Below, piece by piece: positions 852 through 32,498 of a stretch of 32,666 bases of DNA. Source of the stretch: an uncultured Candidatus Saccharibacteria bacterium (GTDB lineage Bacteria > Patescibacteriota > Dojkabacteria > SC72); assembly GCA_964621195.1 (NCBI GenBank), contig CAZULJ010000005.1, positions 11,168-43,833 on the forward strand. Reading direction: 5' to 3'. A program made the position numbers and the translations under genes. The notes beneath the pieces are model-generated. The model was not told the DNA's origin, did not search any database, and saw only the letters and a list, made by a program, of their open reading frames with translations. Positions within the stretch are counted from its first letter, which is position 1; every line of letters starts with the position of its first letter.

Positions 852-854
852 TAG

Positions 855-2729: not shown

Positions 2730-2734
2730 GGAGT

Positions 2735-4062: not shown

Positions 4063-4066
4063 TATA

Positions 4067-4095
4067 TTGTTTATATATGAGCTTTCTGTTAAATT
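4067..4095 (+). promoter_or_regulatory. Candidate promoter for the minor-pilin operon
   Basis: TTGTTT (4067-4072), 17 nt, TAAATT (4090-4095) with an extended -10 TG at 4087-4088. ATG is at 4125. Confidence 0.5.
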
Positions 4096-4124
4096 TAATA
4101 TAGATTACTTTTTAATCAAAAAAG

Positions 4125-6309: not shown

Positions 6310-6329
6310 TTAATTGTTAATTTTTATAT

Positions 6330-11139: not shown

Positions 11140-11219
11140 GAAAATATATAGAACTCTTTAAACTTTCATGTAATAATGGATTTGTAAAGAGGAAGGTGTA
11201 ATTTTTTACTAAAAATTAA

Positions 11220-15165: not shown

Positions 15166-15173
15166 AAACTTGA

Positions 15174-16208
15174 ATGAAAATACTTGTTAGTAAAAAAACA
15201 TCTGTAATATTTACAATGCTTGGTGTTATTCTTGTTCTTTCATCTGTTCTGGGAGGGTATTATCTCTATGAGAGAAATGTAATCATAAATGGTCAGTATG
15301 AATTAGATAAATACAGAGAGGAAACCGAGCTATGTACAAGAGAAGGTTTTTTTGGAAAGTTGAATTTTCGCTGTGAAGGATACATAGATATTTACCAAGA
15401 AAAGGATGGTAGAGATTGTTTCTCAATGGCTTTATTAAGTCCAGAAAAGGAGCTCTACTATAAGGAGATATGTGAACCAAAAGATTCCATAGAGTGGGAT
15501 AGAGGGACAATGATTTCTGAGAAAAAAGTCCCAGTATTTGTAGAGTTTTCATATTCAAGGCCAATGTTCGGTGGTTATGTCATAGATAGCATCAAATACA
15601 CCCTTATGTCCGATGAAGAGATTCAGAATTTTGCAGGCAAACTTGTGGAAGAAAGAATACCTGTACCTCATCTACGTACCCAACTAGAAGAGGATCTGGA
15701 ATATAAAGGTTACTATTTATCAAATGAACTTGAAGTTGCTGGGGGGGGAGGCCTAAGTTTTTTTGTACTCTTTAGTGCCAGTATAAAAGAAGTCGCGGTA
15801 TTGGGTGATAATTTAAGTATTACAGTACAGTTCTCAAACGAAGGTAAGGAATATGAATCAGTTTTTGTTGTAAAATCGGTTATGTTCCAAAAGGATATGT
15901 CTACAAATTACATCTCTTTAGATGTGAGTAACATTCAGGACTATGAATTCTCCGATTCTTCTCAAATCCTCTTGATGTATCTTGGAGAAGACACCAACCT
16001 TAGAAAGGAAGAGATTCTTTCCTACTGTTCTTCAGGTAATATATTGGCTGAATTCTTCTCCATTTGTTCAATAGTTGAAGATATTAATATAGATTCTTAC
16101 CGTATTGCAAATGCCGAAGAATACTTTAGATCTTCTTTAGAAAAGAATGCTGATGGCTTCGTTGATCTTGATAAGTTTCTGCTAAGTGGAATTCTTTTTA
16201 GATTGTAG
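15174..16208 (+). CDS. Hypothetical single-pass membrane protein, cassette 3 partner (paralog of 7728..8756)
   Basis: Shares DC..., KEICE...IEWD, PV(Y/F).EF.Y and M(T/S)D(D/E)E plus a C-terminal Cys pair with 7728..8756. Contains a G8 run at 15741-15748. Confidence 0.75.
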   Translation: MKILVSKKTSVIFTMLGVILVLSSVLGGYYLYERNVIINGQYELDKYREETELCTREGFFGKLNFRCEGYIDIYQEKDGRDCFSMALLSPEKELYYKEICEPKDSIEWDRGTMISEKKVPVFVEFSYSRPMFGGYVIDSIKYTLMSDEEIQNFAGKLVEERIPVPHLRTQLEEDLEYKGYYLSNELEVAGGGGLSFFVLFSASIKEVAVLGDNLSITVQFSNEGKEYESVFVVKSVMFQKDMSTNYISLDVSNIQDYEFSDSSQILLMYLGEDTNLRKEEILSYCSSGNILAEFFSICSIVEDINIDSYRIANAEEYFRSSLEKNADGFVDLDKFLLSGILFRL

Positions 16209-16210
16209 AA

Positions 16211-19200
16211 ATGAAAATTGGAAAATTAAAAACAATTATACTTTCAATATTTTTTCTGACAACATTGTTTGTTGTGTTAGAAATATCTAAAGGAGATGTT
16301 TCTGCAATGATCTGTGGAACTAACTACTATTGTACAACATCAAATCAATGGGTTAATTCTTATGTTCGTATCGGTGGTGGCTCATGCCATTACATTACTT
16401 ATTACTCGTGCAATGGAAATGATACAAACTGTCAGGAAGACTATGTTGATATATATTCTGATGCAGAATGTGCAGTAAAAACTCACGATGACTATGGTTG
16501 TTGTATATATGATTCACCTCCTGCTTGTAACAATTGTACACCATCGTCTCCACCTGCTTGTCCAGCGGGTACAACAGAGACAAATACGGGAGACTTCCAT
16601 TCCTCGACAACTTCAAGTTGTGATAGAGGCTCTGGTTGTGATCCAAGATATAATACTAGTACGAGAAACTGCTACTGTTCACTTTGTACGCCACCATCAT
16701 GTACCCCAACCTACTCTACAACCAATCTAGGTTTTGGTTCAATATCTCTTTCTTGTCAAAACTCTCCCACTGGAGACTCTCGTTGTGATTACAGATCAAA
16801 TACTTGCTACTGTTACCAATGTACTCCTGCAAACTGTCCTGCTGATTTGAGCAATACGGATCTCGGTGTTGGAGTTAGTACTCATACGGTATCTTGTACC
16901 AATGCATGTAGCTCAAGTAACAGTCGGGCCTGTTATTGTAGAGATTGTACATTACCAGTTCCTTCTGGAACAACATTAACAAATACTGGCCGACAATCTA
17001 CTGATCCTACCTATCAAAGCACAAGCTGTAGTAAGGGTACCGGATGTACTCCAAAAAGTGCACCATTGTACTGTACAAGATGTACTCCTACAGCATGTGG
17101 CCCCACCTACGCTACTTCAAACCAGGGATATGGCACCTTGAACTTTACTTGTAATAATACTTTGGCTTCCTGTGGTACTGAGACCAGAGCTTGTTACTGC
17201 TATAGCTGTACACCACCGGCCTGTGCACCAACCTACAGTACTACAAATTATGGATATGGCTCAGTTACATTAAGCTGTACGAATGCATGTAGTACAACTA
17301 GTAACAGAACCTGTTATATTGATAGATGTAGTAACTGTACACTACCAAACTGCCCATCTCCACTCACAAATACCCCTACCACAGCAGATCCAAATATGGA
17401 ACTTACAAACTTCAGATCATGTACACGTAGTGCACCTTGCGGTGGTCCAGCAAACTATGGAGCATGTTATGAGGTTGTAAGCCCACAACCAACAACAAGT
17501 TTACAAATATATCCTGATGCTGCAAATGTTTATAACTTCTCGAGTAGTACACATACGGGAACTAGAACACCGCTTTACAACCTTAATGACCCAATACCTA
17601 TGACTGCTACATATACAGATGTCAATGGAGCCACTGATATTGAGGCTGTATCTGTTTGGTTTAGAGATGAAAGTCTTTCTGGGGAGATAAATACTCCGTT
17701 AGTTTTTATGGAGACGGGTGGACCTTCGGTACCTGCACCACAAACGGAAACAAATAATAGCTGGGGCTTTATGATGAGATGGAATGGCTCGACATGGCTT
17801 CCATATGTACCTTCTTACCCTTCAGCGCCTAGTACTCCAGCTTGGGTCCCTGCCTTGTATGCTAGCAATTCTTTTGTAATTTCAGGTCCTAATGGACTAC
17901 AAATGGTGAGAGTTACAATAGGTCATTCTCTTCAGAGTAATATCACTAGGTCTGGAAATAACGTAGTATTACCATTCCAACTTAGTTTTAACTTCTCCTC
18001 AGGATATGATAGCGTAGCTCAGGTTGATTACCAGACTTACCTAATGGGTAACGATGTCTTCAGTTTTACACCAAGTGATAACTATGCCTTCTCGGTTGAG
18101 GGTTACTGGCAGGGTGGTCAATTACGATACCGAACGAGCCAATTACCTGCACAGCTTTATGCAAGGCAGTGGGCATTAACAGGGTATACATGGAGTGTAG
18201 ATAAGGATGTTCCAGAAGTAGAAGACCTTACTATGACAGTAATTGGTGATACAACTTTAAGATTAAGTTGGAATGTAACTGATTCTAGAGAAATATATGC
18301 TGTTGTGGGAAATATCTATGCATCAATTAGTATGCCTCCAAACCCTGATGATCTAGTAATTACTGGCACAGGTTTGGATGTGAACTCCCCTCATCAACTT
18401 ATTACAGATACTACAGATCTTGCAAAATTGAATACAGGTTATGCTTTCAGAGGTTTAAATATTGGCGGTACAACATATACAAACAATGTAACAATCGATA
18501 TCGGTTCAAATATTGAGGGAAGTCTTGTAGTATACCTCACGGCTTTTGATATGGCCGGTAATATGAGTACAAGAAGTTTAACCTACTCTCTTGGCGATTG
18601 GATAGCTACGTATGGTGGATTTGTATACTCTTCTGAGGGTAGAGACTATGAAATGAAGACAATAGAAAGTGATACCGCTTGGGATTCAGTACCTGTTCTA
18701 GCTGGGCTGGATCCAACCCTTGCGGATGTCTCTACAGAGCTTTTCGCAGATAATCAAAGTAGTGGTACATTGCCATCAGCTCTTGATAGAAGTACCGAGT
18801 TACGTTCTTACCACATGAGACCATTTAGTGTGAATGTAGAAATGGATAGTCTGTATCAGGAATTAAAACAGGCTTACAATGATAGGGAAATTGAAGGAAA
18901 GGTGGATCTAACCTTGGACTTACCTATGATTACAAGTCTAAATGGTAATCTAAGTGATATTGGGAGCTGTACTGACTCTTCAAGGGTATGTATTTTAAAA
19001 AGACAAGGAGATTTGGATGTCGGGAATGTATCAACGTTTAATTGTGATCAATGGGGAGTATTCTTTGTAGAAGGAAATCTAACTATTTCAAGAAACATTG
19101 TTAATGCAAATCCTTCCTATGACGCATGTATCTTTGTAGTTGGAGGTGAAGTTTTAATTGAAGATGGACAGGCACATTCTAACGCTTTACTGATAGGGTA

Positions 19201-19471
19201 TGATCAGATCAATGCATATATAATGGCGGATGGAGCAGTAAATATCCAAGCTGAGCTTGGTGCAGCTGCAAAGTATGATGGTGTATTTGTAGGCGGTGGT
19301 TTACATAGTTTAACAGGCATTAATATGGATAGAAGTCTTAAGTTGGCAGACAGAAATATATACCCTGCTCTACTTGTTAAATATCATCCTAAATACTCGG
19401 TATTGAGTAATCTTGTATTTGGTAGTCAGATTGATATACTAAAAACAGAATTAGGTTTTAAACCATACTAG
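16211..19471 (+). CDS. Large secreted Cys-rich repeat protein, putative adhesin (cassette 3, 1086 aa)
   Basis: Signal ..GDVSA|M, tip alignable to that of cassette 1, seven Cys repeats, diverged core (TYTDVNGATDIEAVSVWF vs TYTDADGGTDIEAIYVWF). Ends IDILKTELGFKPY. Confidence 0.75.
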   Translation: MKIGKLKTIILSIFFLTTLFVVLEISKGDVSAMICGTNYYCTTSNQWVNSYVRIGGGSCHYITYYSCNGNDTNCQEDYVDIYSDAECAVKTHDDYGCCIYDSPPACNNCTPSSPPACPAGTTETNTGDFHSSTTSSCDRGSGCDPRYNTSTRNCYCSLCTPPSCTPTYSTTNLGFGSISLSCQNSPTGDSRCDYRSNTCYCYQCTPANCPADLSNTDLGVGVSTHTVSCTNACSSSNSRACYCRDCTLPVPSGTTLTNTGRQSTDPTYQSTSCSKGTGCTPKSAPLYCTRCTPTACGPTYATSNQGYGTLNFTCNNTLASCGTETRACYCYSCTPPACAPTYSTTNYGYGSVTLSCTNACSTTSNRTCYIDRCSNCTLPNCPSPLTNTPTTADPNMELTNFRSCTRSAPCGGPANYGACYEVVSPQPTTSLQIYPDAANVYNFSSSTHTGTRTPLYNLNDPIPMTATYTDVNGATDIEAVSVWFRDESLSGEINTPLVFMETGGPSVPAPQTETNNSWGFMMRWNGSTWLPYVPSYPSAPSTPAWVPALYASNSFVISGPNGLQMVRVTIGHSLQSNITRSGNNVVLPFQLSFNFSSGYDSVAQVDYQTYLMGNDVFSFTPSDNYAFSVEGYWQGGQLRYRTSQLPAQLYARQWALTGYTWSVDKDVPEVEDLTMTVIGDTTLRLSWNVTDSREIYAVVGNIYASISMPPNPDDLVITGTGLDVNSPHQLITDTTDLAKLNTGYAFRGLNIGGTTYTNNVTIDIGSNIEGSLVVYLTAFDMAGNMSTRSLTYSLGDWIATYGGFVYSSEGRDYEMKTIESDTAWDSVPVLAGLDPTLADVSTELFADNQSSGTLPSALDRSTELRSYHMRPFSVNVEMDSLYQELKQAYNDREIEGKVDLTLDLPMITSLNGNLSDIGSCTDSSRVCILKRQGDLDVGNVSTFNCDQWGVFFVEGNLTISRNIVNANPSYDACIFVVGGEVLIEDGQAHSNALLIGYDQINAYIMADGAVNIQAELGAAAKYDGVFVGGGLHSLTGINMDRSLKLADRNIYPALLVKYHPKYSVLSNLVFGSQIDILKTELGFKPY
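16526..17473 (+). repeat. Seven degenerate ~40-51-aa Cys/Thr-rich protein repeats (C-T-P/L-x2-C-P...TN.G...C...C...CY-C/E)
   Basis: Units end in RNCYC, NTCYC, RACYC, PLYC, RACYC, RTCYI and GACYE. Diverged at DNA level. Confidence 0.85.
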
Positions 19472-19518: not shown

Positions 19519-20547
19519 ATGGCTAAACTGCCTGACCATGTAGGAATAGACTTTGGAACACACTCCGTAAAGGCTGTTGAGCTTAAAAACTCTGGAACCT
19601 CTCCTGAGTTGATTAATCTTGGTAGTCAGATAACTCCAAAGGGAGTTATAAATAGTGAAGACAAACAAGATCAAAAGAAGTTAGCAGATGTTCTTAAGAA
19701 GCTTTACGATGATTCGAAGATAAAGAACACAAATGTTGTAATGGCATTGCCAGAGTTTTCTGTTTTTACAAGATTCTTAGAATTTCCTGGTGTTAAGAAA
19801 GAAGAGCTAAGAGATGCGGTTTTCTTTGAAGCAAAGCAGTATATCCCTATGTCTATAAACGATGTACATATGAGTTTTGTAACCATTGGTTTCAATGAAG
19901 AAAAAAATGCTCCAAGAGTTCTTTTGGTTGCAGCACCTAAAAAGGTTGTAAATATATACATGGATATTGCTAAAATGGCTGACTTAGATCTTGTAGCTAT
20001 AGAAACAGAATCTGTTGCTATGGGTAGAGCAATGTACAAGTCTACTAATATAAAAAATCTTGTAATGTTAGATTTTGGAGCAAATAGCACAGACATGAGC
20101 ATTATGAGTGACGGATACCTTGTATTTTCTCAAAGTATCGCTATTGGGTCAGACTCTTTAACACAGGCTATTGTTAATAAATTCAACTTTGAATACAGTA
20201 GAGCTGAAGAATTTAAGAGAAACTATGGATTAGTACCTACAGTATTGGAAGGTAAAATCTATGGAGCACTTTCTCCAATTGTTGAATCTATACTCCTAGA
20301 GGTACAAAGAGGTGTTGAATTCTATAAAAACAAAACCTCAAGCTCCTCTCCAAGCGATTATCAATTGAATGGTGATGGTGCCCTACTCCCTGGTTTGTCT
20401 GAATTTGTTTCAAAATCTTTGGGTGTTAATGCAAAGGTTTCAAATCCATGGAATGGTATTAATGTTGATAGTAAATTTAAAGATATTGTTGCAAAGGGTG
20501 GACCATCATACTCTGTTGCAATAGGTTTAGCATTAAAAGATGAATAA
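19519..20547 (+). CDS. pilM: Type IV pilus assembly protein PilM
   Basis: Actin-like motifs VGIDFGTHSVKAVEL and LDFGANSTDMSI, EAKQYIP, VLLVAAP, ending SVAIGLALK. Confidence 0.92.
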   Translation: MAKLPDHVGIDFGTHSVKAVELKNSGTSPELINLGSQITPKGVINSEDKQDQKKLADVLKKLYDDSKIKNTNVVMALPEFSVFTRFLEFPGVKKEELRDAVFFEAKQYIPMSINDVHMSFVTIGFNEEKNAPRVLLVAAPKKVVNIYMDIAKMADLDLVAIETESVAMGRAMYKSTNIKNLVMLDFGANSTDMSIMSDGYLVFSQSIAIGSDSLTQAIVNKFNFEYSRAEEFKRNYGLVPTVLEGKIYGALSPIVESILLEVQRGVEFYKNKTSSSSPSDYQLNGDGALLPGLSEFVSKSLGVNAKVSNPWNGINVDSKFKDIVAKGGPSYSVAIGLALKDE

Positions 20548-21211
20548 GGAGCCGAATCAGACACAAACCGTGCAGAGTCCTAAAGTAGCACCTGTTACTA
20601 CTCCGGTTAGTGCACCTAAAACAATGGTTGAACAACTTTCTAGCGAATCACAAGGCCTCACAGAGGGCTTTAACTTAATGCCTTCTATGACAAAGGAAGA
20701 GATAGTTGTAGAGAAAACAAAAACCACTGTAAATTTGGGATCTGTTGTAAGTCTAATTGTTCTTGTTTTGATAATTCTTGGTGTAGTTGGTTTTAATATT
20801 GTTTCAAAGCAGATGCTCAATAGTAAGAAAGAGGAGCTTTTTGCTTTAGAAAATATTGTAAATCAACAATCAGATAAAATTATTGCAAATGATGAAATTG
20901 TTGATAGAGCAATTCTTTACAATACTGTTAAAACTGGAGCATTCTCTCATAAGGCAATCATAGAATTTATATCAGCAATAAGCCAAAAGGTTGGAAATAT
21001 TGAAATCAGGAGCGTAATGATATCTGAGAACCTTGAATTCACATATGTTGGATATACGGCCAGTTTAGAGAATGTATCTAAACTCTGGTATATGTTGGGT
21101 ATTGATGAAAATATTGAAAATATTAATCTAAAGTCAGTTGGGAAATCTAATGGATCTGTATCTTTTACTTTTGAGGGTCTTTTAAATATTAAAAATTTTT
21201 CAAATAAATAG
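20540..21211 (+). CDS. pilN: PilN-like alignment-complex protein
   Basis: FNLMP (INLLP-like PilM-binding motif) before a single TM, then a coiled coil and a small beta/alpha domain. Overlaps pilM. Carries a Q/P/T-rich N-terminal extension. Confidence 0.7.
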   Translation: MNKEPNQTQTVQSPKVAPVTTPVSAPKTMVEQLSSESQGLTEGFNLMPSMTKEEIVVEKTKTTVNLGSVVSLIVLVLIILGVVGFNIVSKQMLNSKKEELFALENIVNQQSDKIIANDEIVDRAILYNTVKTGAFSHKAIIEFISAISQKVGNIEIRSVMISENLEFTYVGYTASLENVSKLWYMLGIDENIENINLKSVGKSNGSVSFTFEGLLNIKNFSNK

Positions 21212-21213
21212 AC

Positions 21214-21912
21214 ATGGGATTAGCTAAGGGATCTAATACAAAAACAAGTAAAGAAATTGCAGTAATTAGCGAGAAGATAAGGCAGTCGAGATTAAGCTTT
21301 TCTGATCTGGTTGTTCCAATAATAGTTTTGATTGTATTACTTCTTCTTTCTGTATTTGTTTTTGTACCAATGATCAATGCTGCATTAGAGTATCGGGCAG
21401 AGTTAAAAGATACAGAGCAAAAGATTGAAACTTTGGAAGAGCTTTCTAAGAAGTTGGATAATATAGATGAGAATCAATTAAGCGATGATATTATCCTTGC
21501 AAAAAGTGTAATACCAAAAGTATTAAAAGTCTCAGATTTTATATATTATGTAGATAATCTTGCAAAGGAGAAAGGTCTTTTGATTAGAGAGCTTTCCGCA
21601 GGCGATATGGGTGGTGCAGTTTCTCAGGCAGAAAGCGGAGCTGGGGTATCTGGGCCAGTATCATATGTTGGTGATTACCAAAGTGTTGTAGGATTCCTTG
21701 AACAGGTACAAGTTGTATCTCCATATATAATACGTTTACAAAATGTAGAGGTAGCAGCTCTAACCACGGGTCAATGGAGTATCTCTCTTAATTTGAGTGG
21801 ATATTATATGGCAGATCGAAATGCTGTCGTAGACTTATACAAGCCATTTAGGCCATACACCGATTACCAAGATACAATTGATATCTTTAAAGCAAAAGCA
21901 GAAAGCCTTTAA
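21214..21912 (+). CDS. pilO: PilO-like alignment-complex protein
   Basis: Single TM, coiled coil, G.YQSVVGFLEQV..VSPYIIRL.NVEV ferredoxin-like pattern. Follows pilM-pilN. Confidence 0.7.
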   Translation: MGLAKGSNTKTSKEIAVISEKIRQSRLSFSDLVVPIIVLIVLLLLSVFVFVPMINAALEYRAELKDTEQKIETLEELSKKLDNIDENQLSDDIILAKSVIPKVLKVSDFIYYVDNLAKEKGLLIRELSAGDMGGAVSQAESGAGVSGPVSYVGDYQSVVGFLEQVQVVSPYIIRLQNVEVAALTTGQWSISLNLSGYYMADRNAVVDLYKPFRPYTDYQDTIDIFKAKAESL

Positions 21913-22673: not shown

Positions 22674-23369
22674 CTATTTATTACTACTTTCAATATTTTC
22701 TATACCTACCTTTGCTGCTTGCTCTTCTGCTTTCTGCTTACTACTGCCCTTACCCTCTCCGTAAATCTTGTTATCAATCTTAATAACTACAGTAAAAGTC
22801 TTATCATGATCGGGTCCCTCTTCGTTTATTACTTCGTATACAGGTGTCGATTTGTATAGCGATTGGGCTAATTCCTGAATCTTTGTTTTGTTATCAATGT
22901 CTAATCTATGTTTAACTATTTCTTCAATCTTAGGTAGGAGACTTCTCTCTACGAATGATTTACACTCCTCGTACCCCTTATCTATATATATAGCGCCAAG
23001 TATTGCTTCAAAAGTATTTGCTAAAAGATAATCTTTATCTCTACCACCACTATCTTCTTCCCCTCTTGAAAGCCTGAGATGGTCACCAAGACTTAAAGCT
23101 TTTGCTGTTTGAGCTAAACTATCTGTTCTAACTAATGCTGAGCGAAAACTTGTTAACTCTCCCTCTGCTCTTTCAGGATATTTAGTATAGAGGAAGTTTG
23201 ATACTATCAGTTCTAATACGGCATCACCAAGGAATTCTAATCTCTCATTATGTTCTGGAACATTCCTATTCTCATTAAGATATGACCTATGTGTTACTGC
23301 AACCTCAAGTAGTCCCTTATTTGAGAATTCTACACCAATACTTTTTTCTAAATCCTTAATATTACTCAT
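22674..23369 (-). CDS. rnc: Ribonuclease III
   Basis: HRSY..E, NERLEFLGDAVL signature and a C-terminal dsRBD (GPDHDKTF, GKGSSKQKAEEQAA). Start reassigned from 23414 to ATG 23369 (MSNIKDLEK), overlapping the nusB stop by 8 nt. Confidence 0.95.
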   Translation of the reverse strand: MSNIKDLEKSIGVEFSNKGLLEVAVTHRSYLNENRNVPEHNERLEFLGDAVLELIVSNFLYTKYPERAEGELTSFRSALVRTDSLAQTAKALSLGDHLRLSRGEEDSGGRDKDYLLANTFEAILGAIYIDKGYEECKSFVERSLLPKIEEIVKHRLDIDNKTKIQELAQSLYKSTPVYEVINEEGPDHDKTFTVVIKIDNKIYGEGKGSSKQKAEEQAAKVGIENIESSNK

Positions 23370-23802
23370 TCTCTTCTTTTTTGTTAATCTCATATATTGC
23401 ACCCAATACACCATTTACAAATTTACTACTAGTTTCTCCACCAAATTCCTTTGCTATTTCTATTGCCTCATCAATTGATACTTTAGGAGGTGTTATCTTT
23501 CCAACAAACCCTTCAAATATTGCAATTCTTAGAATCTGAAGATCAACTAATTTCATTTGTGAAATTGGCCATTGTGGTGCGAACTTGATGATAAATTGAT
23601 CTATAGCATCAATATTCTCTTGAACTCCAGATACTAAAGATTGATAGAGCTCTTCGTTGTAGCTATCTATTTCATCTAAGGCTGAAAGATCTGTAACATT
23701 AAACTCTACTACACCTTCCGGTGAATGATTGAAGTCCTTAGAGAAAAGGGTTTGAAGTGCTAATTCTCTGGATAAATGCCTAGGGTCAGTTGCTCTCTTC
23801 AT
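23362..23802 (-). CDS. nusB: Transcription antitermination factor NusB
   Basis: RHLSRELALQTLF, DLQILRIAIFE, IDEAIEIAKEFG, SKFVNGVLG. Confidence 0.95.
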   Translation of the reverse strand: MKRATDPRHLSRELALQTLFSKDFNHSPEGVVEFNVTDLSALDEIDSYNEELYQSLVSGVQENIDAIDQFIIKFAPQWPISQMKLVDLQILRIAIFEGFVGKITPPKVSIDEAIEIAKEFGGETSSKFVNGVLGAIYEINKKEENE

Positions 23803-24064: not shown

Positions 24065-26782
24065 CTATATTATCCAACTCTCTTTAATTTCTATCTCTTC
24101 CCCTGGTTGTATTTGTCCCTCGATCATCTCTTTTGCGATATTTCCTTCTATATTATCCTGTATATATCTCTTTATTGGCCTTGCACCTAATCCTGGTTGA
24201 TTAGCTTTGTTTGCAATTAATTGGGGTACTAGATGATTCCATGTTAAGACTATACTCTTTTCAGAAAGTCTCTTTGAAAGCTCTCTGAGTAATATCTCTG
24301 ATATATCTGCAAGACTTTCCATATCGTGTGGGTGGAATACAACGACCCTATCAAACCTATTTAGTAGTTCTGGCCTTATCGATTGTCGTAGCTCAATTAG
24401 TGCACGATCTTTTGCTTCCTCCCAAGTAGTTCTTCCTTCACTTAAGGAGTTAAGAAGCATTAGACTACCAATATTGCTTGTACATACTATTATGCAGTTT
24501 GTAAAATCTACTACCTCACCTAAGTTACTTGTTAATCTACCCTCATCAAACATTTGTAAGAAAAGGTCGAGAATTTGGGGATGTGCTTTCTCTATCTCAT
24601 CAAAGAGAACTACTGTATATGGATTAAGCTTCACTTTATCGATTAGTGATACTGCGCTTTGCCCCGTGATATTGGTCTGACCACTCTCTCCTAGGAACTT
24701 CTCTATACTTGCAATATCTTGATATTCAGACATATCTACCCTAATCATATCGCTTGCTTCTCCGAAATATTCTTCGGCAACAATTTTTGCCAAATATGTC
24801 TTTCCGACACCCGTTGGTCCCATGAAAAGGAATGTACCAATTGGCTTGTTAGGGTTTCGGATATCAGTATGTGCTCTTCTAAGAGACTCTACAATTGCTT
24901 TTATAGCTTCATCTTGCCCAATTACCCTACCCTTTATCTTCTCCTCAAGTTGCATTAACTTTGTGCTCTCTTGTGCATTTACACCTGCAATTGAAATACC
25001 CTTCTGATTAGAGAGTACCTTTGCAATATGCTCCCCTGTAAGAACATTAACACCATTACTTTGAGCCCATGCACATGATGCTTCAAGTAGTTGTACTGCA
25101 CTACTTGGTAATTTACGTTCCTTAGAGTATCTTTGTGCTAACTCAACTGTGCTAATTAACGCGGGTAGAGTTATATATATCCCGAAGTTTTTTTCTAATT
25201 GCAAAATCTTTGTTTCAAGTATTACTAGAGCATCATCTGCCGATATTTCGGCAACTTCAATATTTGTGAATGTCTGTCTAAGAGATTCTGAACTGTAGAA
25301 ATATTTTTTGTAATCAGAATGATTAACAGTACCAATGATTGGGAACTTACTGTTGAGTATGTAAGGTAGAAGTATTCCAGCAAGTGAGTGTCCAGAATCT
25401 TGTGCCTTTGCAGGTATTAATTCTTGCATCTCATCTATGTACAAGATAGTATCGCCTGCATTTTCTAACTCTTCGATAGCTTTGCCAATTAGCTGCTCGA
25501 CACTTTTCTCTTTTGATGCGAATGCGATCAATCCATTAATATCGAACTGTAGTATCCTTTTATCTTTCAATTGTAATGGTACATCTCCCCTATTTATCCT
25601 CTGTGCAATGCCAAGTATGAGGCTAGATTTTCCAACACCGGGTTCTCCTACTAAGAGGGCATTTTTGTTTGAGACCTTACCCAATACCGATACCAGATTG
25701 TCTATTTCTTTTTCATGCCCGATACCAAAGATATCATCATATCTTGCAACATATTCGTTAATATTTTTGCTGAATTTGTTTAATATGAATGTATATCCGT
25801 ATATCCATGATTCTGCTATCCCACCCTTCTTGTAGTATGTTACGTTAGGATTGAGATAGTTTGTACTTCTTCTTTTTTCTCTTTCATATGATTGATATCT
25901 TACGACCTCTCGTAGTATATCGATAGAGGAGTTTTGAGTAAGAAGGTATTTCTTGAGTACGGGGAAAACATTAAACAGTGCTAACATAATATGCTCCGGC
26001 CTTATTTCTCTTGATGATGTTAAAAGGGCTTCGTTTAGCGAATATATCAGTATACTTCTGATTGCAGTTGCTGGATACTTTGGTATTGTGTTACTGTTAA
26101 CATCCTCTTTTGAAAGAGATTCAAAATCTAGTTTTAGGTCTGCTCTTTTAAAAATATCTTGAGATTGAGGATAGATGATTAGCTCTGCTAGTAGAGAGAG
26201 TGTATCTAGTTGGTCTTTCGAGGTATTTGCGCAGATAATGTCTAATGAAACATCATTTATGTAATTTATTGCCTCTAAATGGGCATATCTTCCGAATTTA
26301 AATCCTGTTGCCTTTATTTCTTCTAAATCATTTAGTGGTATCTTTTCAGCATTTGGTAGTTTTACTGGGTGACTTTTGTCTTTGTAATAGTCGTGCCATA
26401 GGATAAAGACACTGAAGATTGATAGGCCAAAAAGAGCATCAGATATTCCACTAGCAAGAAACTCCTTAACTATTGAAATATTCTCGAGAATTCCAAACTG
26501 TCTTAACATATATCCTACTGCTATGACTAACCCAGGAACCAGTAATACATTAGCTACTAGCCTTATATTCTCATAGTATCTTTCATATCTAAGGTAATTT
26601 GTTAATACGTTGCTAACTTGTGGGGTTGAGATTGTGAAGAACTGGTCTCTTGTTAAAAGGAAAAGGGCTTCAGATTCTTTAGTGAGAATAGGAAATTCCT
26701 TACTTACAACACCAAAAGTGTTACTATCCTTAGAATGAAAGCCTATTAATGTTCTGTTTTGCCATCCGTAATCTATCGCCAT
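24065..26782 (-). CDS. Atypical class I Clp/Hsp100 AAA+ ATPase with an N-terminal membrane anchor
   Basis: Two NBDs: GEPGVGKS / ILYIDE and GPTGVGKT / VVLFDEIEKAH, RPELLNR, GARPIKR. Two hydrophobic segments near the N-terminus. No M-domain, no IGF/L loop, and both Tyr pore loops are not recognisable. Confidence 0.85.
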   Translation of the reverse strand: MAIDYGWQNRTLIGFHSKDSNTFGVVSKEFPILTKESEALFLLTRDQFFTISTPQVSNVLTNYLRYERYYENIRLVANVLLVPGLVIAVGYMLRQFGILENISIVKEFLASGISDALFGLSIFSVFILWHDYYKDKSHPVKLPNAEKIPLNDLEEIKATGFKFGRYAHLEAINYINDVSLDIICANTSKDQLDTLSLLAELIIYPQSQDIFKRADLKLDFESLSKEDVNSNTIPKYPATAIRSILIYSLNEALLTSSREIRPEHIMLALFNVFPVLKKYLLTQNSSIDILREVVRYQSYEREKRRSTNYLNPNVTYYKKGGIAESWIYGYTFILNKFSKNINEYVARYDDIFGIGHEKEIDNLVSVLGKVSNKNALLVGEPGVGKSSLILGIAQRINRGDVPLQLKDKRILQFDINGLIAFASKEKSVEQLIGKAIEELENAGDTILYIDEMQELIPAKAQDSGHSLAGILLPYILNSKFPIIGTVNHSDYKKYFYSSESLRQTFTNIEVAEISADDALVILETKILQLEKNFGIYITLPALISTVELAQRYSKERKLPSSAVQLLEASCAWAQSNGVNVLTGEHIAKVLSNQKGISIAGVNAQESTKLMQLEEKIKGRVIGQDEAIKAIVESLRRAHTDIRNPNKPIGTFLFMGPTGVGKTYLAKIVAEEYFGEASDMIRVDMSEYQDIASIEKFLGESGQTNITGQSAVSLIDKVKLNPYTVVLFDEIEKAHPQILDLFLQMFDEGRLTSNLGEVVDFTNCIIVCTSNIGSLMLLNSLSEGRTTWEEAKDRALIELRQSIRPELLNRFDRVVVFHPHDMESLADISEILLRELSKRLSEKSIVLTWNHLVPQLIANKANQPGLGARPIKRYIQDNIEGNIAKEMIEGQIQPGEEIEIKESWII

Positions 26783-27323: not shown

Positions 27324-28265
27324 ATGAATATATATACAGAAATTAAAAAACCGATATTAGCACTTGCCCCAATGGAGGATGTTACTGATACGGTATTTAG
27401 ACAGATTGTATTATCTCTCGGTAGACCCTCTCTCTTCTATACAGAGTTTGTTAATGTAGAAGGCTTAAATAGCCGTGGTAGAGATCGTGTAATACATCGA
27501 TTAAGCTATGTTAAAGAGGAGAAGCCAATCATTGCCCAGCTATGGGGTGTTAAACCTGAGAATTTTCTCTACGGTGCAAAGTTAGTTAAAGATATGGGAT
27601 TTGATGGTGTAGATATTAATATGGGGTGTTCAGTAAAGAATGTTGTGAAAAACAATGCTGGCAGTGGATTGATTAATGAGGATAGAGGGAGGGTAAAAGA
27701 GATAATAGAGGCTGTGATGGAAGGTTCGGATGGTTTGCCGGTATCTGTTAAAACAAGATTGGGTTTTGACTCGATAGATATTGATGGATGGATTGCATTC
27801 TTACTTTCACAAAACCTGGAGGCCCTAACTGTTCATATGAGAACGGCAAGGGGTGAGAATTCCATTAATGCAGATTGGGAGCATATGGGCAGTATAGTGG
27901 CCTTGAGGGATACAATCTCACCCTCTACTCTACTTTTGGGTAATGGTGATATTAAATCTATAAAAGAGGGTTTAGAGAAAATTAAACAATACAATATTGA
28001 GGGAGTGATGATTGGTAGAGAGGCAATATCTAATCCTTGGGTGTTTTCTGGGAGAACAGATATAAGTATTGAAGAGAAGTTGGAAACACTCAAGAAACAC
28101 TTAATTCTTTGGAGAGAGGGTTGGGAAGGTGAAAAAGATTATCACTCACTAAAAAAGTTCTTTCATGGGTATATCCGAGAATATACTAATGCTAAAACAC
28201 TTAGGGATTCTCTTATGAAAACAGAAAATGTTTCTCAAGCGCTTGAAATATTAGAGGAAATTTAA
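27324..28265 (+). CDS. dusB: tRNA-dihydrouridine synthase (Dus family, DusB-like)
   Basis: LAPMEDVTD, YTEFV, IIAQLWG, DINMGC (catalytic Cys), SVKTRLG, VH.RT, GNGDI, GVMIGR. Subfamily assignment is less certain than the family. Confidence 0.88.
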   Translation: MNIYTEIKKPILALAPMEDVTDTVFRQIVLSLGRPSLFYTEFVNVEGLNSRGRDRVIHRLSYVKEEKPIIAQLWGVKPENFLYGAKLVKDMGFDGVDINMGCSVKNVVKNNAGSGLINEDRGRVKEIIEAVMEGSDGLPVSVKTRLGFDSIDIDGWIAFLLSQNLEALTVHMRTARGENSINADWEHMGSIVALRDTISPSTLLLGNGDIKSIKEGLEKIKQYNIEGVMIGREAISNPWVFSGRTDISIEEKLETLKKHLILWREGWEGEKDYHSLKKFFHGYIREYTNAKTLRDSLMKTENVSQALEILEEI

Positions 28266-30487
28266 GAGTCTCTTTTTAATCCCATCTTTGCAAACATATC
28301 GGTAGTATCTTTTTGCATCTTGTGTTCCTCTTGGTTGGTATATTTTTCTAAGCTTACGGTAAATGTACTCCCCTTACCTAGCTCACTTTGTATATCAATT
28401 TTTCCACCCATTTTTTGTACTAACCCAAATGTTACATACAGTCCTAGTCCGGTTCCTCCTGGTCTAACAATATCAAAATCGTCTTTTTCCTCTGACTGTA
28501 TGTATGTTTTTGTTCTAAAGAACTTTGTACCTAATCTCTTTAAATCTTCGGGGGCAATACCTCTACCAGTGTCCTGTATTGAAATATGGAGATACTTTTC
28601 ATCTTCTTTGGCATAGACGTTGATACACCCTTCGTCTGTGTATTTTACTGCATTACTTATGAGGTTATTAAATATCTCTACTGTTCTCGCGTGGTCTGCA
28701 TATATTGCAGGGGTATCTTGTGGGACCTCATTTATTATCTTTATACCTTTCTGTGTAGCGTGCTCTTCTTCTCCGTGTATTGCCATCTCTATTTCTTTTG
28801 AGATATCAATTTTCTCTTTATTTATTTCAACCTTATCTCCCTCTAGCTTTGCACTACTTAGGAGTGTATTGATCAATTTTATCTCTGTTTCTACCGCATC
28901 CTTAATCCTACCTACATATTTATCAAACGATTGCTTATCTTGGGTAACCTTATCTGAAAATTGCCTTAAAAGGTCTGCGTTAAGCTTTACTACTGTAGCG
29001 GGAGTTCTTAACTCATGTCCCATTATATCTATCATATCGGCTTCTTTCTTCCTTGCCTCTTCGAGTAGTCTGACTTTTTCCTGTAATTCTGTAGTCTGTT
29101 CATCTACTCGAGTTTTTAGTGATTTATTTATCTCTTGAAGTTCTTCATAAAGGATTGTTCTATTCAAGGAAACGGACATACTGTTAGACATAAGGGAGAG
29201 ACTGTTATACTGTGCTTCCCCTAGTACATCGTCTGTGTTGTAAATATTAATCAATGCCTGTAAAGAGTTTTTGCTTGCAAGTGGGATGATTATACTAATT
29301 TTGTTTTTCTGCATATGGTTATAGATCTCCTTTGTAATCTCTTTATTATTCTCCCTATCGAAGTACGACTCTATTAGCACCTCCTTGTTTATTACTGGAA
29401 TTCTTGATCTTAATTTCCACCAGTGAGTAATCTTTTCTTGAATATCAGTAATATGTTCTTGTCTGATTAATTCTAAGACTATACTCTCCGGTTTTAACAT
29501 CTTTTCTAAGGTGCTGTAAGCAACCTGTGTTAACTCTTCCGTTGAAGTAATACTTGTTGTTTTATCAATAAAAGAACCAACTTCCTCTTGTGATTGTACC
29601 TGTCTTTTTTCGTATATTCTGTTGAAGTATCCATAAAATCCGTTGATTACAATAACTATTGAAAGAGAGGTTAAAAATCTACCGACAATGTTCATCTCAA
29701 TATCAACGACTCCTGCAAATGACCATATCGCTAGTATTACAAGAGCAGATAGTAATACTCCGAAGAGTCTCGTAAGTTCCTCTCTAATATCTACTACTGC
29801 AACCTTTATCCATAGACTCTTATTTATTACGAATGCTAGTAATGAGAGAGAGAGAAACATAAAGGGGCTATACATAGAGAGCCCTAGCATAGGTAGCACA
29901 ATTAGACCAAGACTCATTGAGACGTAAACGAATGCAAGAGTTAGAGATATTGTTGATATCTGCCTTTTCTGTGTAGGAGTGTATAGAGGTAGTCTTGATT
30001 TCCAATGTAGTAGGATTGCTACAAAGAATACCACTGCTAATGCTATTAATGCATAATACAAAGGTCCTGGTGAGAAATCTGCTGGAGAGTTTTGAACAAC
30101 GGAGAAGTTTGTTATGTTGTATTGAGATCTGAAGAGAAACGCAGATGCAATTGTGTATAGTCCAGTAATAACGGCACATATTTTGAATATACGATTCTCT
30201 TTATTTATTGTAATTATTCTAGGGAACTGATCGACAATCCCCATTAAAGCGTTAATAATATTGAGTGGGAAAAAGATTGAAATCTGTGCAAATAGAAGAG
30301 CTGTTTCTTGCTCTCTGAGAATATCTGCAAGAGCATTAGTTACTGCCCATCCAGTTATCGAAATTAATAGGTATAGATACTGAAAGGTTTCTTTTTTGGT
30401 TAATTTTTTTCTTAACCTAAAAAACACCCATATGTTAGAAAAGAGTGTAAGAAGAATAAAAAGATATATAATGTATAGATTCAGCAT
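28262..30487 (-). CDS. Sensor histidine kinase with an N-terminal multi-TM (7TM-like) input, a GAF-like region, HisKA and HATPase domains
   Basis: H-box MGHELRTP, N-box NNLISNAVKYT, G1 DTGRGI, G2 GGTGLGL. About 290 N-terminal residues are mostly hydrophobic helices. Confidence 0.92.
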   Translation of the reverse strand: MLNLYIIYLFILLTLFSNIWVFFRLRKKLTKKETFQYLYLLISITGWAVTNALADILREQETALLFAQISIFFPLNIINALMGIVDQFPRIITINKENRIFKICAVITGLYTIASAFLFRSQYNITNFSVVQNSPADFSPGPLYYALIALAVVFFVAILLHWKSRLPLYTPTQKRQISTISLTLAFVYVSMSLGLIVLPMLGLSMYSPFMFLSLSLLAFVINKSLWIKVAVVDIREELTRLFGVLLSALVILAIWSFAGVVDIEMNIVGRFLTSLSIVIVINGFYGYFNRIYEKRQVQSQEEVGSFIDKTTSITSTEELTQVAYSTLEKMLKPESIVLELIRQEHITDIQEKITHWWKLRSRIPVINKEVLIESYFDRENNKEITKEIYNHMQKNKISIIIPLASKNSLQALINIYNTDDVLGEAQYNSLSLMSNSMSVSLNRTILYEELQEINKSLKTRVDEQTTELQEKVRLLEEARKKEADMIDIMGHELRTPATVVKLNADLLRQFSDKVTQDKQSFDKYVGRIKDAVETEIKLINTLLSSAKLEGDKVEINKEKIDISKEIEMAIHGEEEHATQKGIKIINEVPQDTPAIYADHARTVEIFNNLISNAVKYTDEGCINVYAKEDEKYLHISIQDTGRGIAPEDLKRLGTKFFRTKTYIQSEEKDDFDIVRPGGTGLGLYVTFGLVQKMGGKIDIQSELGKGSTFTVSLEKYTNQEEHKMQKDTTDMFAKMGLKRDS

Positions 30488-30490: not shown

Positions 30491-31606
30491 TTAGAGTTCT
30501 ATAATCTTGGGGAATTTCCTCATATGGAAATTCTCATACACAAAACTATATGCTCCTGCATTGGGTATTATAAGATAGTCACCCTCTTTTAGATTAATAG
30601 GCAGTAAGCATTTCTTATTTATAATATCATAGCCGTCGCAAGAAATTCCAACGATCTTATAATATTTCTTTGGACTATTCTCACATTCTTTTGTTGTACA
30701 GTACTTATAAACAGGGTATTCAAAATGTTCTAGAGGTTCTATTAATCCATTAAATACACTTAAATCTGTTACAACAATTTGTGGACTCTTGTAACTCTTA
30801 ATATTTACAACCTTGGCAGCAAGCACCATCGTGTTTGCAGATAATGCCCTGCCAGGCTCAATAATAAATTCACTTACTCCTGTTCTTGATTTTACGTAGT
30901 GAGTAAACTTGATTATCTTGTCTATGTAATACTCCACGGACTTTACTCCATTTTCATACCTTACTGGGATTCCACCCCCCATGTTTATACATTTTAGATT
31001 TATTCCGTATTCTTTTGAGGTCACGACAAGACGTTCAATATCGTAAAGCGCGTTCCTCCAAGAAAGTACTGACTTATTTTGAGATCCGACATGAAAGGTC
31101 AATCCATATATTGGCCACTTATTCTTTTTAGCCTTTTTAAGTATATCTGTGTAGTATGATTCCGACATTCCAAACTTATCAGAAAGATTGAATGTAGCAT
31201 CCTTATTTTTTGCGGTCATTCGTCCTATTAATTTTGGATTCCTTGTATTCCTTAGGATCTTTTTTAATTCGATTTCTGTATCAAATGCGTAGTATTCGAC
31301 ACCAACGCTAGATGCATACTGTACGTCTTTTTCTAATTTGGTTGGAGCTGAAAAGGAAATCTTTTTTGGATCTGCACCAAGACTTAATGCGTATTCTAAT
31401 TCTTCTTTTGAGGCAACATCGAAACCGTATCCTGCTTCTATGTAAGCTTGGATCATGGGTTTATAGTTATTTGCTTTGATTGCGTAGAATATTTGTATGG
31501 AATTATCGAGGAGGGGTTGGAAGGTCTTGATATTTTGAGCGGTATTTTGTGCTTGGTATAGGTATGCTGGAGTTTCTAGTTTATTGGTTATTTTCAGGTC
31601 TTTCAT
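30491..31606 (-). CDS. Fold-type III PLP-dependent decarboxylase, ornithine/lysine decarboxylase-like
   Basis: FYAIKAN (PLP Lys), FDVAS..E, HVGSQ, NMGGG, EPGR, GISCDGYD and GAY. The CD motif is ODC-type, whereas LysA has CE. Confidence 0.85.
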   Translation of the reverse strand: MKDLKITNKLETPAYLYQAQNTAQNIKTFQPLLDNSIQIFYAIKANNYKPMIQAYIEAGYGFDVASKEELEYALSLGADPKKISFSAPTKLEKDVQYASSVGVEYYAFDTEIELKKILRNTRNPKLIGRMTAKNKDATFNLSDKFGMSESYYTDILKKAKKNKWPIYGLTFHVGSQNKSVLSWRNALYDIERLVVTSKEYGINLKCINMGGGIPVRYENGVKSVEYYIDKIIKFTHYVKSRTGVSEFIIEPGRALSANTMVLAAKVVNIKSYKSPQIVVTDLSVFNGLIEPLEHFEYPVYKYCTTKECENSPKKYYKIVGISCDGYDIINKKCLLPINLKEGDYLIIPNAGAYSFVYENFHMRKFPKIIEL

Positions 31607-32498
31607 CTTTTACCTTGTATATATTAACAAAAACATTCTGTCCTTCTTCATTTCTGTATCCCTTTCTTGTAAGGGTTAGTTTTTTGTTTTGGTAAAGGAC
31701 CTTTGAGAAGAGAGAGAGAAGCCTATCCTCCTCTTCTGCAGTTCTAATTGTGGCGGAGCCTTCCTTTGTGAACATTATGAACTGATCGGGAAGTGGGCTA
31801 AACTTCTTTGCTGCGCGGATTATTGACTCCATCATAAAGCGGCTCTCCTTTGTTACTGCAATTTCTCCTAAGTATGTTGTAGGTACTTCATCTATTAAAG
31901 CTCTTAATTCCTCTTGCATCTCTTCGGGTATATAGTAGCCAATTTCGTCAAAAATCTGATCTCCAATATTTGAACCCATGTATCTAACTCTTGTAACTCC
32001 CCTTGGGCTTACAATTTCCCCTGGTGATTCCTCTGTTAAATCTATTGTTTGTTGTTTGTCATTAGCATCGTGATATGAGACCAAGACCATGGACTTAGGA
32101 TCTTTAGAGTCTCTAGCATATGCCTTTAATATACTTGAGAATGGATATATCATCCTTATCCTTGCGAGTGTTTCCTCATCTGAGATAATTTCAAGAATCT
32201 CTTCTTCTCCCTCAGTAGTTAGAAATACTGACTCTGGGTTTACAAGTAATGCATCTATTAATCTAAAAAGATGAGTTGCATTATGTGGATCAAAGTCGTC
32301 CTCTGAGTCTGAAAATTGTTGTAAATAGTCATCCCCCTCTTCTACTGTCCATTCTTCTGCAAATGGTGGTCTAGAAAATACCGAGACATATACGGAAATT
32401 GCGCATGCTAGTCCCTCTATTTGTTTATCAGAAAAACTATCTTTATCAAATTTCTCTCCAAGGCTAGTTCTTGTTATTACTGGATCTTTTGGGTCCAT
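31581..32498 (-). CDS. Hypothetical acidic protein with GNAT-like features
   Basis: N-terminal VYVSVFSRPPFAEEW and YLGEIAVTKESR resemble GNAT helix-1 and beta4/motif A. The (R/Q)xxGxG loop is absent. Overlaps the decarboxylase start by 26 nt. Confidence 0.45.
   Translation of the reverse strand: MDPKDPVITRTSLGEKFDKDSFSDKQIEGLACAISVYVSVFSRPPFAEEWTVEEGDDYLQQFSDSEDDFDPHNATHLFRLIDALLVNPESVFLTTEGEEEILEIISDEETLARIRMIYPFSSILKAYARDSKDPKSMVLVSYHDANDKQQTIDLTEESPGEIVSPRGVTRVRYMGSNIGDQIFDEIGYYIPEEMQEELRALIDEVPTTYLGEIAVTKESRFMMESIIRAAKKFSPLPDQFIMFTKEGSATIRTAEEEDRLLSLFSKVLYQNKKLTLTRKGYRNEEGQNVFVNIYKVKDERPENNQ

Follow-up and report, generated by a model that had tools for sequence, protein, structure and literature searches.

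A membrane-anchored Clp/Hsp100-like ATPase without pore-loop tyrosines, encoded next to a small membrane protein, in Dojkabacteria and other CPR bacteria

To our knowledge, every characterised bacterial Hsp100/Clp ATPase grips polypeptides with pore-loop tyrosines. In this paper we describe a gene that departs from this rule, found in a 32,666-nucleotide stretch of DNA (the window) from an uncultured Candidatus Saccharibacteria bacterium that GTDB places in the Dojkabacteria (assembly GCA_964621195.1, contig CAZULJ010000005.1, positions 11,168 to 43,833). Its product is a two-ring Clp/Hsp100-like ATPase that carries a predicted N-terminal transmembrane (TM) hairpin, has no tyrosine in either pore loop, has neither the ClpP-docking loop nor the M-domain, and is encoded directly downstream of a small membrane protein. 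Similar proteins recur in bacteria of the CPR (candidate phyla radiation, also named Patescibacteria). Our preferred reading, to which we give a probability of roughly 0.42, is that the ATPase would be an ATP-driven membrane machine, i.e. a switch or remodeller, which does not thread its substrate and works with the small membrane protein as its partner.

Results

Two AAA+ modules with intact ATP sites

The window protein is a Clp/Hsp100 ATPase of class I, with two tandem AAA+ modules (nucleotide-binding domains 1 and 2, NBD1 and NBD2), each with Walker A and Walker B motifs, and a D2-small domain (Table 1). Pfam matches AAA (residues 376-489) and AAA_lid_9 (514-577) in NBD1, and AAA_2 (646-812) and ClpB_D2-small (821-899) in NBD2, and the Torsin family matches weakly across residues 606-680. 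The nearest solved relatives by sequence are T. thermophilus ClpB (1qvr, E 5e-108) and S. aureus ClpC, with E values of about 1e-108 to 1e-106, and a Foldseek search with the AlphaFold2 (AF2) monomer model, whose mean predicted local distance difference test score (pLDDT) is 80.3, returned ClpC structures as top matches (9a66_A, E 3e-47). The protein nevertheless scores far below the equivalog cutoffs of the NCBIfam models for ClpB (TIGR03346, 452.8 bits, cutoff 1232), ClpA (TIGR02639, 414 bits, cutoff 993; the model aligns from residue 221), ClpK (371 bits, cutoff 1900) and ClpV (TIGR03345, 363 bits, cutoff 885).

Both ATP sites are preserved in the alignment of Dojkabacteria-type proteins, where K385, S386, D450, E451 and N487 of NBD1 are invariant, as are the catalytic residues of NBD2. 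The latter are also found in 46/46 members of a sister subfamily described below, with the sensor-2 arginine in 45/46. The most frequent C-terminus among 120 orthologue clusters is ESWI[IVM], of which related forms occur in nearby subfamilies; it was not found in the Parcubacteria-type subfamily or in canonical Clp proteins. This hydrophobic tail at the end of NBD2 could be a docking motif.

Loss of threading, ClpP-docking and disaggregase features

Motifs were placed with HMMER, by aligning the protein to ClpB of T. thermophilus and ClpC of S. aureus, and with MAFFT, in an alignment that included E. coli ClpB and ClpA; conservation was read from a 121-sequence alignment made of the query and 120 orthologue cluster representatives. 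In the pore loop of NBD1, AFASKEKSVE aligns with AGAKYRGEFE, and the column of the canonical tyrosine (424) has the composition K83 G12 R9 N8 V3, with an aromatic residue in 0 of 121 sequences. Position 421 is also variable, being H, Q, F, Y, I, T or L. In NBD2, the loop peptide FLGESGQTNITGQ (residues 696-708) occupies the place of the second tyrosine loop; GESGQTNITGQSA aligns with GAPPGYVGYEEGG, and N704 falls on the tyrosine of GYVG. Columns 699-706 vary in both sequence and length, with insertions and deletions, and the AF2 model gives this loop a pLDDT below 50. When the windows of the AAA core were ranked by column entropy, the NBD2 pore loop was the most variable window of 12 residues (a variability matched by only 0.2% of windows), the NBD1 pore loop was within the 5% most variable windows, and the Walker A motifs were among the least variable.

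The arginine-finger region of NBD1 is likewise altered. SLRQTF, within SESLRQTF (residues 498-505), aligns with ALERRF, such that R502-Q503-T504 stand opposite E-R-R. R502, which lies two residues upstream of where NBD1 canonically has its finger, is conserved in 120/121 sequences, and R502-Q503 is nearly invariant; the sister subfamilies have no arginine at all in this region. As for the disaggregase features, ClpB residues ~391-506, which form the coiled-coil M-domain that links ClpB to DnaK/Hsp70, have no counterpart in the window protein, and the AF2 model shows no coiled-coil insertion; ClpA, itself without an M-domain, aligns as one stretch (query 254-898 against ClpA 97-732). The segment after sensor 1 matches the ClpB pattern, including an invariant tryptophan (W787), and has a gap where ClpC has FAGFGGS. 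An IGF, IGL or VGF motif, searched for as [IVL]-G-[FL], was not found in the 31 residues after TSNIG (768-772), nor across residues 768-803.

The gene had been singled out in an earlier reading of the DNA (the original prediction) as a membrane-anchored Hsp100 without the hallmarks of an unfoldase (pore-loop tyrosines), of a ClpP partner (IGF/L) and of a disaggregase (M-domain), and both our alignments and the hydropathy analysis agree with that description. The peptides it quoted, both Walker A/B pairs and the two hydrophobic helices all lie in the translation where it had placed them; helices are indeed predicted at the N-terminus, and the aligned orthologues do not retain canonical pore loops.

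The membrane anchor and the N-terminal region

TM helices were called by Kyte-Doolittle (KD) hydropathy with a 19-residue window and a threshold of 1.6. The first helix reaches the threshold in 121/121 aligned sequences and the second in 92/121, the second being thus the weaker of the two, and a conserved juxtamembrane motif, WHDYYKDKSHP, follows directly after it. On average, the aligned sequences have 4.3 lysines and arginines before TM1, 1.5 in the connecting loop and 3.4 after TM2, a charge pattern that is consistent with a hairpin having both ends inside and with a cytoplasmic ATPase. The AF2 model gives the same order of elements, i.e. a beta domain (12-50), two helices (53-95 and 112-137) and a helical domain (150-306).

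The beta domain in front of the hairpin is modelled with strands at residues 12-17, 22-25, 38-43 and 47-50 (pLDDT 81-89), and is well conserved, with G14, H16, F41, R45, F49 and Q55 invariant. Foldseek matches of this domain to gelsolin and Sec23 had a probability of at most 0.4 and were disregarded, which leaves it with no credible fold match. The helical domain behind the hairpin appears to be a divergent Clp_N-type domain: hhalign matched family residues 188-294 to canonical Clp N-domains with a probability of 90% (E 1.6e-6), and Foldseek matched the domain to the N-domains of Hsp104, PfHsp101, ClpC and ClpD with target-normalised TM-scores of 0.45-0.62 at weak E values of 0.1-1. Pfam Clp_N does not match the window protein even at E<=10, yet a Clp_N match is precomputed for some orthologues; at the same threshold Pfam finds nothing in residues 1-345, and a PDB sequence search with a profile of the N-terminal region returned noise only (E >= 0.14). 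The tether between TM2 and the N-domain is short, about 12 residues, and in a hexamer the N-domain/NBD1 face would consequently lie on the membrane.

Between the N-domain and NBD1 lies an aromatic linker in which Y316, G320, G321, W326, G329, T331, L334 and F337 are invariant. Its core, GG[IV]...W.[YF]G[YF]T..L..FS.D[IL]T (query 320-342), is common to all the membrane-anchored subfamilies and is not present in E. coli ClpA or ClpB. The AF2 model has a pLDDT below 50 for linker residues 321-331.

A conserved upstream gene for a small membrane protein

The TAA stop codon of the upstream gene overlaps the ATG of the ATPase gene as TAATG. In the encoded protein, a soluble N-terminal part that carries the conserved motifs WWY..P and LPWHRD is followed by a hydrophobic C-terminal part of about 55 residues, long enough for two helices. 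Out of 74 GTDB loci, four are cut by contig ends; in all the 70 testable ones (70/70) a homologue on the same strand ends within ~10 nucleotides of the ATPase start. Furthermore, six loci of distant subfamilies all have an open reading frame (ORF) of 123-132 amino acids upstream (6/6), which abuts or overlaps the ATPase start in five and lies 128 nucleotides upstream of the called start in the sixth (L085). The homologues span 123-137 amino acids overall, and hhalign aligned the Parcubacteria-type small proteins with the Dojkabacteria-type family with a probability of 98% (E 1.3e-13). No match to the small protein was found in Pfam (at E<=10, with three small partner proteins), PADLOC or the PDB, where a sequence search with its profile gave noise only (E >= 0.14). 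The upstream membrane protein that the original prediction had pointed to is hence a conserved partner gene, apparently translationally coupled to the ATPase gene.

In Dojkabacteria, the two genes lie between a divergent Dus gene on one side and the genes for L32, NusB, RNase III, S16 and a KH protein on the other, an arrangement fixed in orthologues down to 58% identity. In other lineages they adjoin tig-clpP and a 16S ribosomal RNA (rRNA) gene, RsmD, LemA or unrelated genes. Since the flanking genes vary between lineages, the genes for the ATPase and the small protein form a conserved unit, and the two proteins probably work together as a two-gene module.

Two other genomic associations were considered and rejected. 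Type IV pilus genes are neighbours of the module both in the window and in L009 (11061-14667), and none was found within 6 kb of it in L007, L085, L086 and L087; the proximity was taken as lineage synteny and not as a sign of a functional link. The module of L007 might also have been taken as a positional replacement of clpX after tig-clpP, but the 2-kb gap there is occupied by a 16S rRNA gene and other lineages place the module elsewhere. This 16S rRNA gene, on a Parcubacteria-type contig, is complete (L007 3871-5346, plus strand, 1495 bits) and lies between clpP and the module.

Table 1. Features of the ATPase and of its upstream gene (positions are those of the window)
Feature	Residues	Position	Strand	Remarks
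Membrane-anchored two-ring Clp/Hsp100-like ATPase, complete coding sequence	905 amino acids + stop	24065..26782	-	ORF list, Pfam, orthologue clusters
N-terminal cytoplasmic four-strand beta domain (predicted)	1-52	26627..26782	-	AF2; restricted to the Dojkabacteria-type subfamily
TM helix 1, LVANVLLVPGLVIAVGYML (predicted)	75-93	26504..26560	-	19-residue KD maximum 2.25; part of AF2 helix 53-95
TM helix 2, FLASGISDALFGLSIFSVFILW (predicted)	108-129	26396..26461	-	19-residue KD maximum 1.77; AF2 helix 112-137
Divergent, probably Clp_N-type helical domain	~150-306	25865..26335	-	hhalign, Foldseek
Aromatic linker YY.KGGIA..WIYGYTFIL..FS, N-domain to NBD1	316-342	25757..25837	-	Clade-specific
NBD1	345-580	25043..25750	-	Walker A GEPGVGKS, Walker B IDE (ILYIDE), sensor-1 N487, AAA lid
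NBD1 pore loop, LIAFASKEKSVEQ	418-430	25493..25531	-	K424 at canonical Tyr position
NBD1 Arg-finger region, SSESLRQTF	497-505	25268..25294	-	Canonical RR replaced by Q-T
NBD2 and D2-small	600-905	24068..24985	-	Walker A GPTGVGKT, Walker B FDE (VVLFDE), sensor-1 N770, Arg finger R809, sensor-2 GAR868P
NBD2 pore-loop region, FLGESGQTNITGQSAVS	696-712	24647..24697	-	Replaces GAPPGYVGYEEGG
Post-sensor-1 segment, TSNIG...IR	768-803	24374..24481	-	ClpB-like; site of the ClpP-docking loop in ClpA/ClpC/ClpX
C-terminal tail, KESWII	900-905	24068..24085	-	Conserved
Partner gene, membrane protein	134 amino acids	26782..27186	-	Directly upstream of the ATPase gene

Distribution of the ATPase and its wider relatives

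Among 5.8 billion protein clusters, at least 120 are orthologous to the window protein at 56-99% identity. Nearly all are 901-907 amino acids long with full coverage, two being of 864 amino acids with 96% coverage, and wherever a source is given it is Candidatus Dojkabacteria, with the label 'ClpC', 'ClpA' or 'AAA family ATPase'. A scan of GTDB with N-terminal patterns, one genome per species, found the gene in 74 species genomes, the titles of which read Dojkabacteria, WS6, Patescibacteria or 'uncultured Candidatus Saccharibacteria'. Many genomes with the title 'uncultured Candidatus Saccharibacteria bacterium' carry a Dojkabacteria-type gene with 40-90% N-terminal identity, and single contigs that carry the gene are titled Lachnospiraceae, Desulfuromonadaceae and Microgenomates. 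These odd titles seem better explained by imprecise or mistaken taxonomy, or by contamination during binning, than by real occurrences of the gene.

When 1.84 billion representatives were searched exhaustively with a profile of the N-terminal 345 residues, only 55 proteins matched; the N-terminal module is rare. The hits along its full length are Clp-like proteins (818-939 amino acids) or short fragments, every one of complete length being Clp-like, and the weaker hits of 800-900 amino acids likewise start with hydrophobic helices. When 27 of these relatives were aligned with E. coli ClpA and ClpB, none (0/27) had either pore-loop tyrosine or the RR of NBD1. Where they are named, such wider relatives come from 'Patescibacteria group bacterium' or 'Candidatus Yanofskybacteria'.

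A search with one of the wider relatives (P0162) as the query returned 119 proteins, i.e. 46 relatives and 73 soluble ClpB/ClpC proteins, which separate cleanly. KYRG, GYVG and ERRF are missing from all the 46 relatives (46/46), and an N-terminal hydrophobic segment (KD >= 2.0) is present in all but one sequence, which is apparently truncated. On the other hand, the 73 canonical ClpB/ClpC proteins, which have no such segment, carry all three motifs (73/73), KYRG and GYVG being nearly invariant. In most of the P0162 group the NBD2 loop is shorter by 4-6 residues (e.g. GSPGE------EGLL) and consists of G, S, P, E, D and N residues, and the NBD1 loop is short and acidic. NBD1 itself is degenerate in this Parcubacteria-type sister subfamily, as the Ser/Thr of Walker A is lost in 44/46 and the Glu of Walker B in 37/46.

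In a neighbour-joining tree based on 554 columns of the ATPase core, from which the N-terminal region was excluded, the membrane-anchored proteins (800-940 amino acids) form one clade in 100/100 bootstraps, and the Dojkabacteria type is nested inside it. This clade without tyrosines appears to be confined to CPR/Patescibacteria. The loss of the tyrosines, the RR pair, the M-domain and the ClpP loop is a conserved trait of the clade, not a lineage-specific decay. The window protein has all the features of the proposed clade: the TM hairpin, the loss of KYRG, GYVG and ERRF, the absence of an M-domain, the linker motif, an intact NBD2 and the upstream partner. The clade is apparently a distinct, undescribed Hsp100 subfamily; no description of such a family was found in full-text literature searches, whose coverage did not extend to subscription journals. 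The impression voiced in the original prediction that similar genes recur in CPR genomes is borne out, but these genes do carry annotations, their names in public records being ClpC, ClpA or AAA family ATPase.

Other genes of the window

Apart from the module, the window holds type IV pilus and housekeeping genes. The pilus genes (within 1-7292 and 19519-21912) encode a T2SSE ATPase fragment (63-851), PilC/T2SSF (855-2096), a prepilin peptidase (2735-3499) and PilM (19519-20547), together with pilin-like N_methyl proteins (2134-2661, 3496-4062 and 5608-6309) and, at 20540-21912, two PilN/PilO-sized ORFs with single TM helices. A run of six ORFs without any Pfam match (7728-19471, plus strand; 342, 796, 555, 761, 344 and 1086 amino acids) lies inside the pilus cluster, between a response regulator gene (7310-7696) and PilM, and L001 has large unannotated ORFs (1163 and at least 857 amino acids) at the corresponding place beside PilM. 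Downstream of the module, the ORFs of NusB (23362-23802, minus strand) and RNase III (22674-23414, minus strand) overlap by 53 nucleotides as listed. The called NusB and RNase III genes in L001 and L002 overlap by only 8-26 nucleotides, hence RNase III of the window probably starts at a later ATG. On the far side, and convergent with the Dus gene, a gene on the minus strand (28262-30487) encodes a 741-residue histidine kinase with HisKA and HATPase_c domains; in its long N-terminal region there are apparently numerous TM helices, and a sensor domain was not recognised. This gene is followed at 30491-31606 (minus strand) by a gene for a pyridoxal phosphate-dependent Orn/DAP/Arg decarboxylase, and at 31581-32498 (minus strand) by an ORF of 305 amino acids without a Pfam match, which overlaps the start of the decarboxylase gene by 26 nucleotides.

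Discussion

A possible non-threading mode of action

The catalytic residues of NBD2 are invariant, and no window of the core varies more than the NBD2 pore loop, a combination which suggests that the ATP motor has been kept and argues against threading. The strongest case against threading is made by the sister subfamily: it shares both the partner and the ancestry of the Dojkabacteria type, yet its NBD2 loop is short and of G/S/P/E type, its NBD1 loop is short and acidic, and its NBD1 is dead. The protein probably has a function so far undescribed for Clp/Hsp100 motors. Furthermore, the module was found in every sampled Dojkabacteria species genome, inside an operon with genes for ribosomal proteins, NusB and RNase III, and this suggests a housekeeping role at the membrane.

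In the mechanism that we propose, the ATPase would form a hexamer whose N-domain/NBD1 face is held on the cytoplasmic face of the membrane, and would bind the small membrane protein in a stoichiometric complex. Conformational changes would be driven by ATP hydrolysis in NBD2, and the N-domain, the aromatic linker (GGI..W.YGYT) and the TM hairpins would relay the motion to the partner, or to some other client embedded in the membrane. Such an action with a membrane cofactor would be Torsin-like; it would involve no threading, no feeding of ClpP and no DnaK-coupled disaggregation. The original prediction spoke of a repurposed membrane AAA+ motor or scaffold. A repurposed membrane ATPase agrees with our results, while a scaffold is unlikely, given that the catalytic residues of NBD2 do not vary anywhere in the clade, nor those of either site within the Dojkabacteria family. 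The roles in extraction and at host contact that it also suggested are conjectural, and extraction by threading would fit poorly with an NBD2 pore loop that is deleted or variable.

Alternative explanations

The alternative that survives best, although we hold it to be somewhat unlikely, is that the protein extracts or unfolds membrane proteins by means of a non-canonical grip. Here an FtsH- or Msp1-like hexamer would pull its clients, perhaps delivered by the partner, into the channel, and would hold them with a collar of linker aromatics (W326, Y328, Y330 and F332), the NBD1 loop and a hydrophobic residue of the NBD2 loop instead of tyrosines. The N-terminal anchor would put the substrate-entry face at the membrane, as such a function demands, and the aromatic motif just before NBD1 is invariant in all subfamilies. 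In the Dojkabacteria type, moreover, the NBD1 loop is moderately conserved as A-x-S-S-K-E-K-N-h-E, with N427 and E429 near-invariant, residues 705/706 of the NBD2 loop are mostly hydrophobic (I/L/F/M), and both ATP sites are invariant, so that NBD1 is apparently active too. Threading would, however, be hard to sustain with the short loops and the degenerate NBD1 of the sister subfamily, and in the Dojkabacteria type, too, no part of the core is under less constraint than the NBD2 loop.

Several of these observations weigh against the non-threading reading. The NBD1-loop motif, the hydrophobic residues at 705/706 and the apparently active NBD1 would leave room for contact with a substrate in the channel. 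A conserved Clp_N domain, which the protein appears to have, normally binds a substrate or an adaptor, and some AAA+ rings with non-aromatic loops, e.g. D1 of p97, still line the substrate path. In addition, the physical interaction between the ATPase and its partner is suggested by gene order only, and the monophyly of the clade is drawn from a neighbour-joining tree with long branches.

Could the protein instead be a fast-evolving ClpB or ClpC orthologue, i.e. a general cytoplasmic chaperone or unfoldase whose odd motifs reflect relaxed selection in reduced genomes? Its top database matches are ClpB, ClpA and ClpC, the public names of its orthologues are ClpC and ClpA, and CPR proteins are generally divergent. 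We consider this improbable, however, because conservation is strict for the catalytic residues, the TM hairpin, the linker motif and the partner gene and the variation is confined to the pore loops, because the membrane-anchored proteins split cleanly from the soluble Clp proteins, and because all the NCBIfam equivalog scores are far under their cutoffs.

An unfoldase that docks on ClpP by other means than IGF/L, for instance through the ESWI[IVM] tail, has very little probability. The clpP gene lies beside the trigger factor gene (tig) in a Dojkabacteria genome (L001, 4235-5356) and in sister-lineage genomes (L007, 3000-3593; L086, 2232-2834), and the gene after clpP is not clpX in the stretches examined, being in L001 an ORF of 178 amino acids without a Pfam match; the conserved hydrophobic tail at the end of NBD2 would also suit this explanation. 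But the tail is missing from the sister subfamily, where ClpP is also nearby, and an ATPase that has no pore loops would feed nothing into ClpP. Finally, it is hardly credible that the two genes form a module of anti-phage defence or of a mobile element, with the small membrane protein as effector of the AAA+ ATPase: defence systems often pair an ATPase with a small TM protein, and PADLOC matches DolB, PDC-M37B and other defence ATPases that resemble NBD2 of ClpB, but these matches (at most 116 bits, residues ~592-773) span only the generic AAA_2 core, the small protein has none, and the module keeps one place in a housekeeping operon among orthologues down to 58% identity and occurs in 74 species genomes, which is not the patchy pattern of a defence island.

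Comparison with known systems

The window protein shares with ClpB/Hsp104 the two AAA+ modules, the D2-small domain, the post-sensor-1 pattern with its tryptophan, the absence of a ClpP loop and, perhaps, the Clp_N-type domain. Unlike them, it has no M-domain, no KYRG/GYVG tyrosines and no RR in NBD1; a TM hairpin, a beta domain and a membrane partner of its own come in addition. With ClpA and ClpC it has in common the N-D1-D2 order and the lack of a long M-domain, and, with ClpA, a small gene directly upstream, as in the clpS-clpA pair of E. coli; the upstream small protein shows no similarity to ClpS or MecA. It differs from both in its membrane anchor and in lacking the IGL/VGF loop and the pore-loop tyrosines. 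ClpV/TssH, which the original prediction had offered as a parallel, resembles it by analogy only, being an Hsp100 that serves a single dedicated client and depends on neither ClpP nor DnaK. ClpV is soluble, retains the pore-loop tyrosines and threads VipB. The parallel is thus a loose one, in keeping with the low score against the ClpV model and with the absence of type VI secretion genes from the window.

FtsH and Msp1/ATAD1 likewise have an N-terminal membrane anchor, which holds the entry face of the hexamer at the membrane, and both act on membrane proteins (PMC7018516). They differ from the window protein in being single-ring, classical AAA proteins that thread with aromatic pore loops, FtsH also carrying a protease domain, and the relation extends to the AAA+ fold only.

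Torsins are single-ring, eukaryotic and lumenal, and their Arg finger is supplied by a cofactor. They are membrane-associated members of the wider Clp/Hsp100-related AAA+ group (review PMC5425593), are without aromatic pore-loop residues, need a membrane-spanning partner and are thought to be switches, not threading motors. Torsin with LAP1/LULL1 is the closest working analogy, which does not imply membership of the same family; in contrast to Torsins, the window protein has two rings, has its own invariant NBD2 Arg finger (R809) and sensor-2 arginine (R868), and has a partner that is small and not an AAA protein. It is only tentatively, and by analogy, that we suggest a bacterial counterpart of the Torsin principle, in which threading would have been abandoned and an ATP-driven switch or mechanotransducer would act on a dedicated small membrane cofactor, as a core housekeeping module of several CPR lineages.

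Conclusions

The module is small, consisting of two genes, and is clearly delimited. Its ATPase appears to be systematically mis-annotated, as the public names are ClpC, ClpA or 'Clp protease ATP-binding subunit'. CPR genomes are minimal, and many conserved CPR genes are of unknown role; given such minimal genomes, the genes that are conserved are likely to matter. A clade with an intact NBD2 site but without tyrosine loops, ClpP docking or a DnaK-coupling domain, which has acquired a membrane anchor and a small, apparently obligate membrane partner, would show that the Hsp100 scaffold has been reused in bacteria, in parallel to the Torsins of eukaryotes. If the suggested Torsin counterpart is real, it would mean a previously unrecognised mode of action for a bacterial Clp/Hsp100 protein, and possibly a membrane process that is specific to the CPR.

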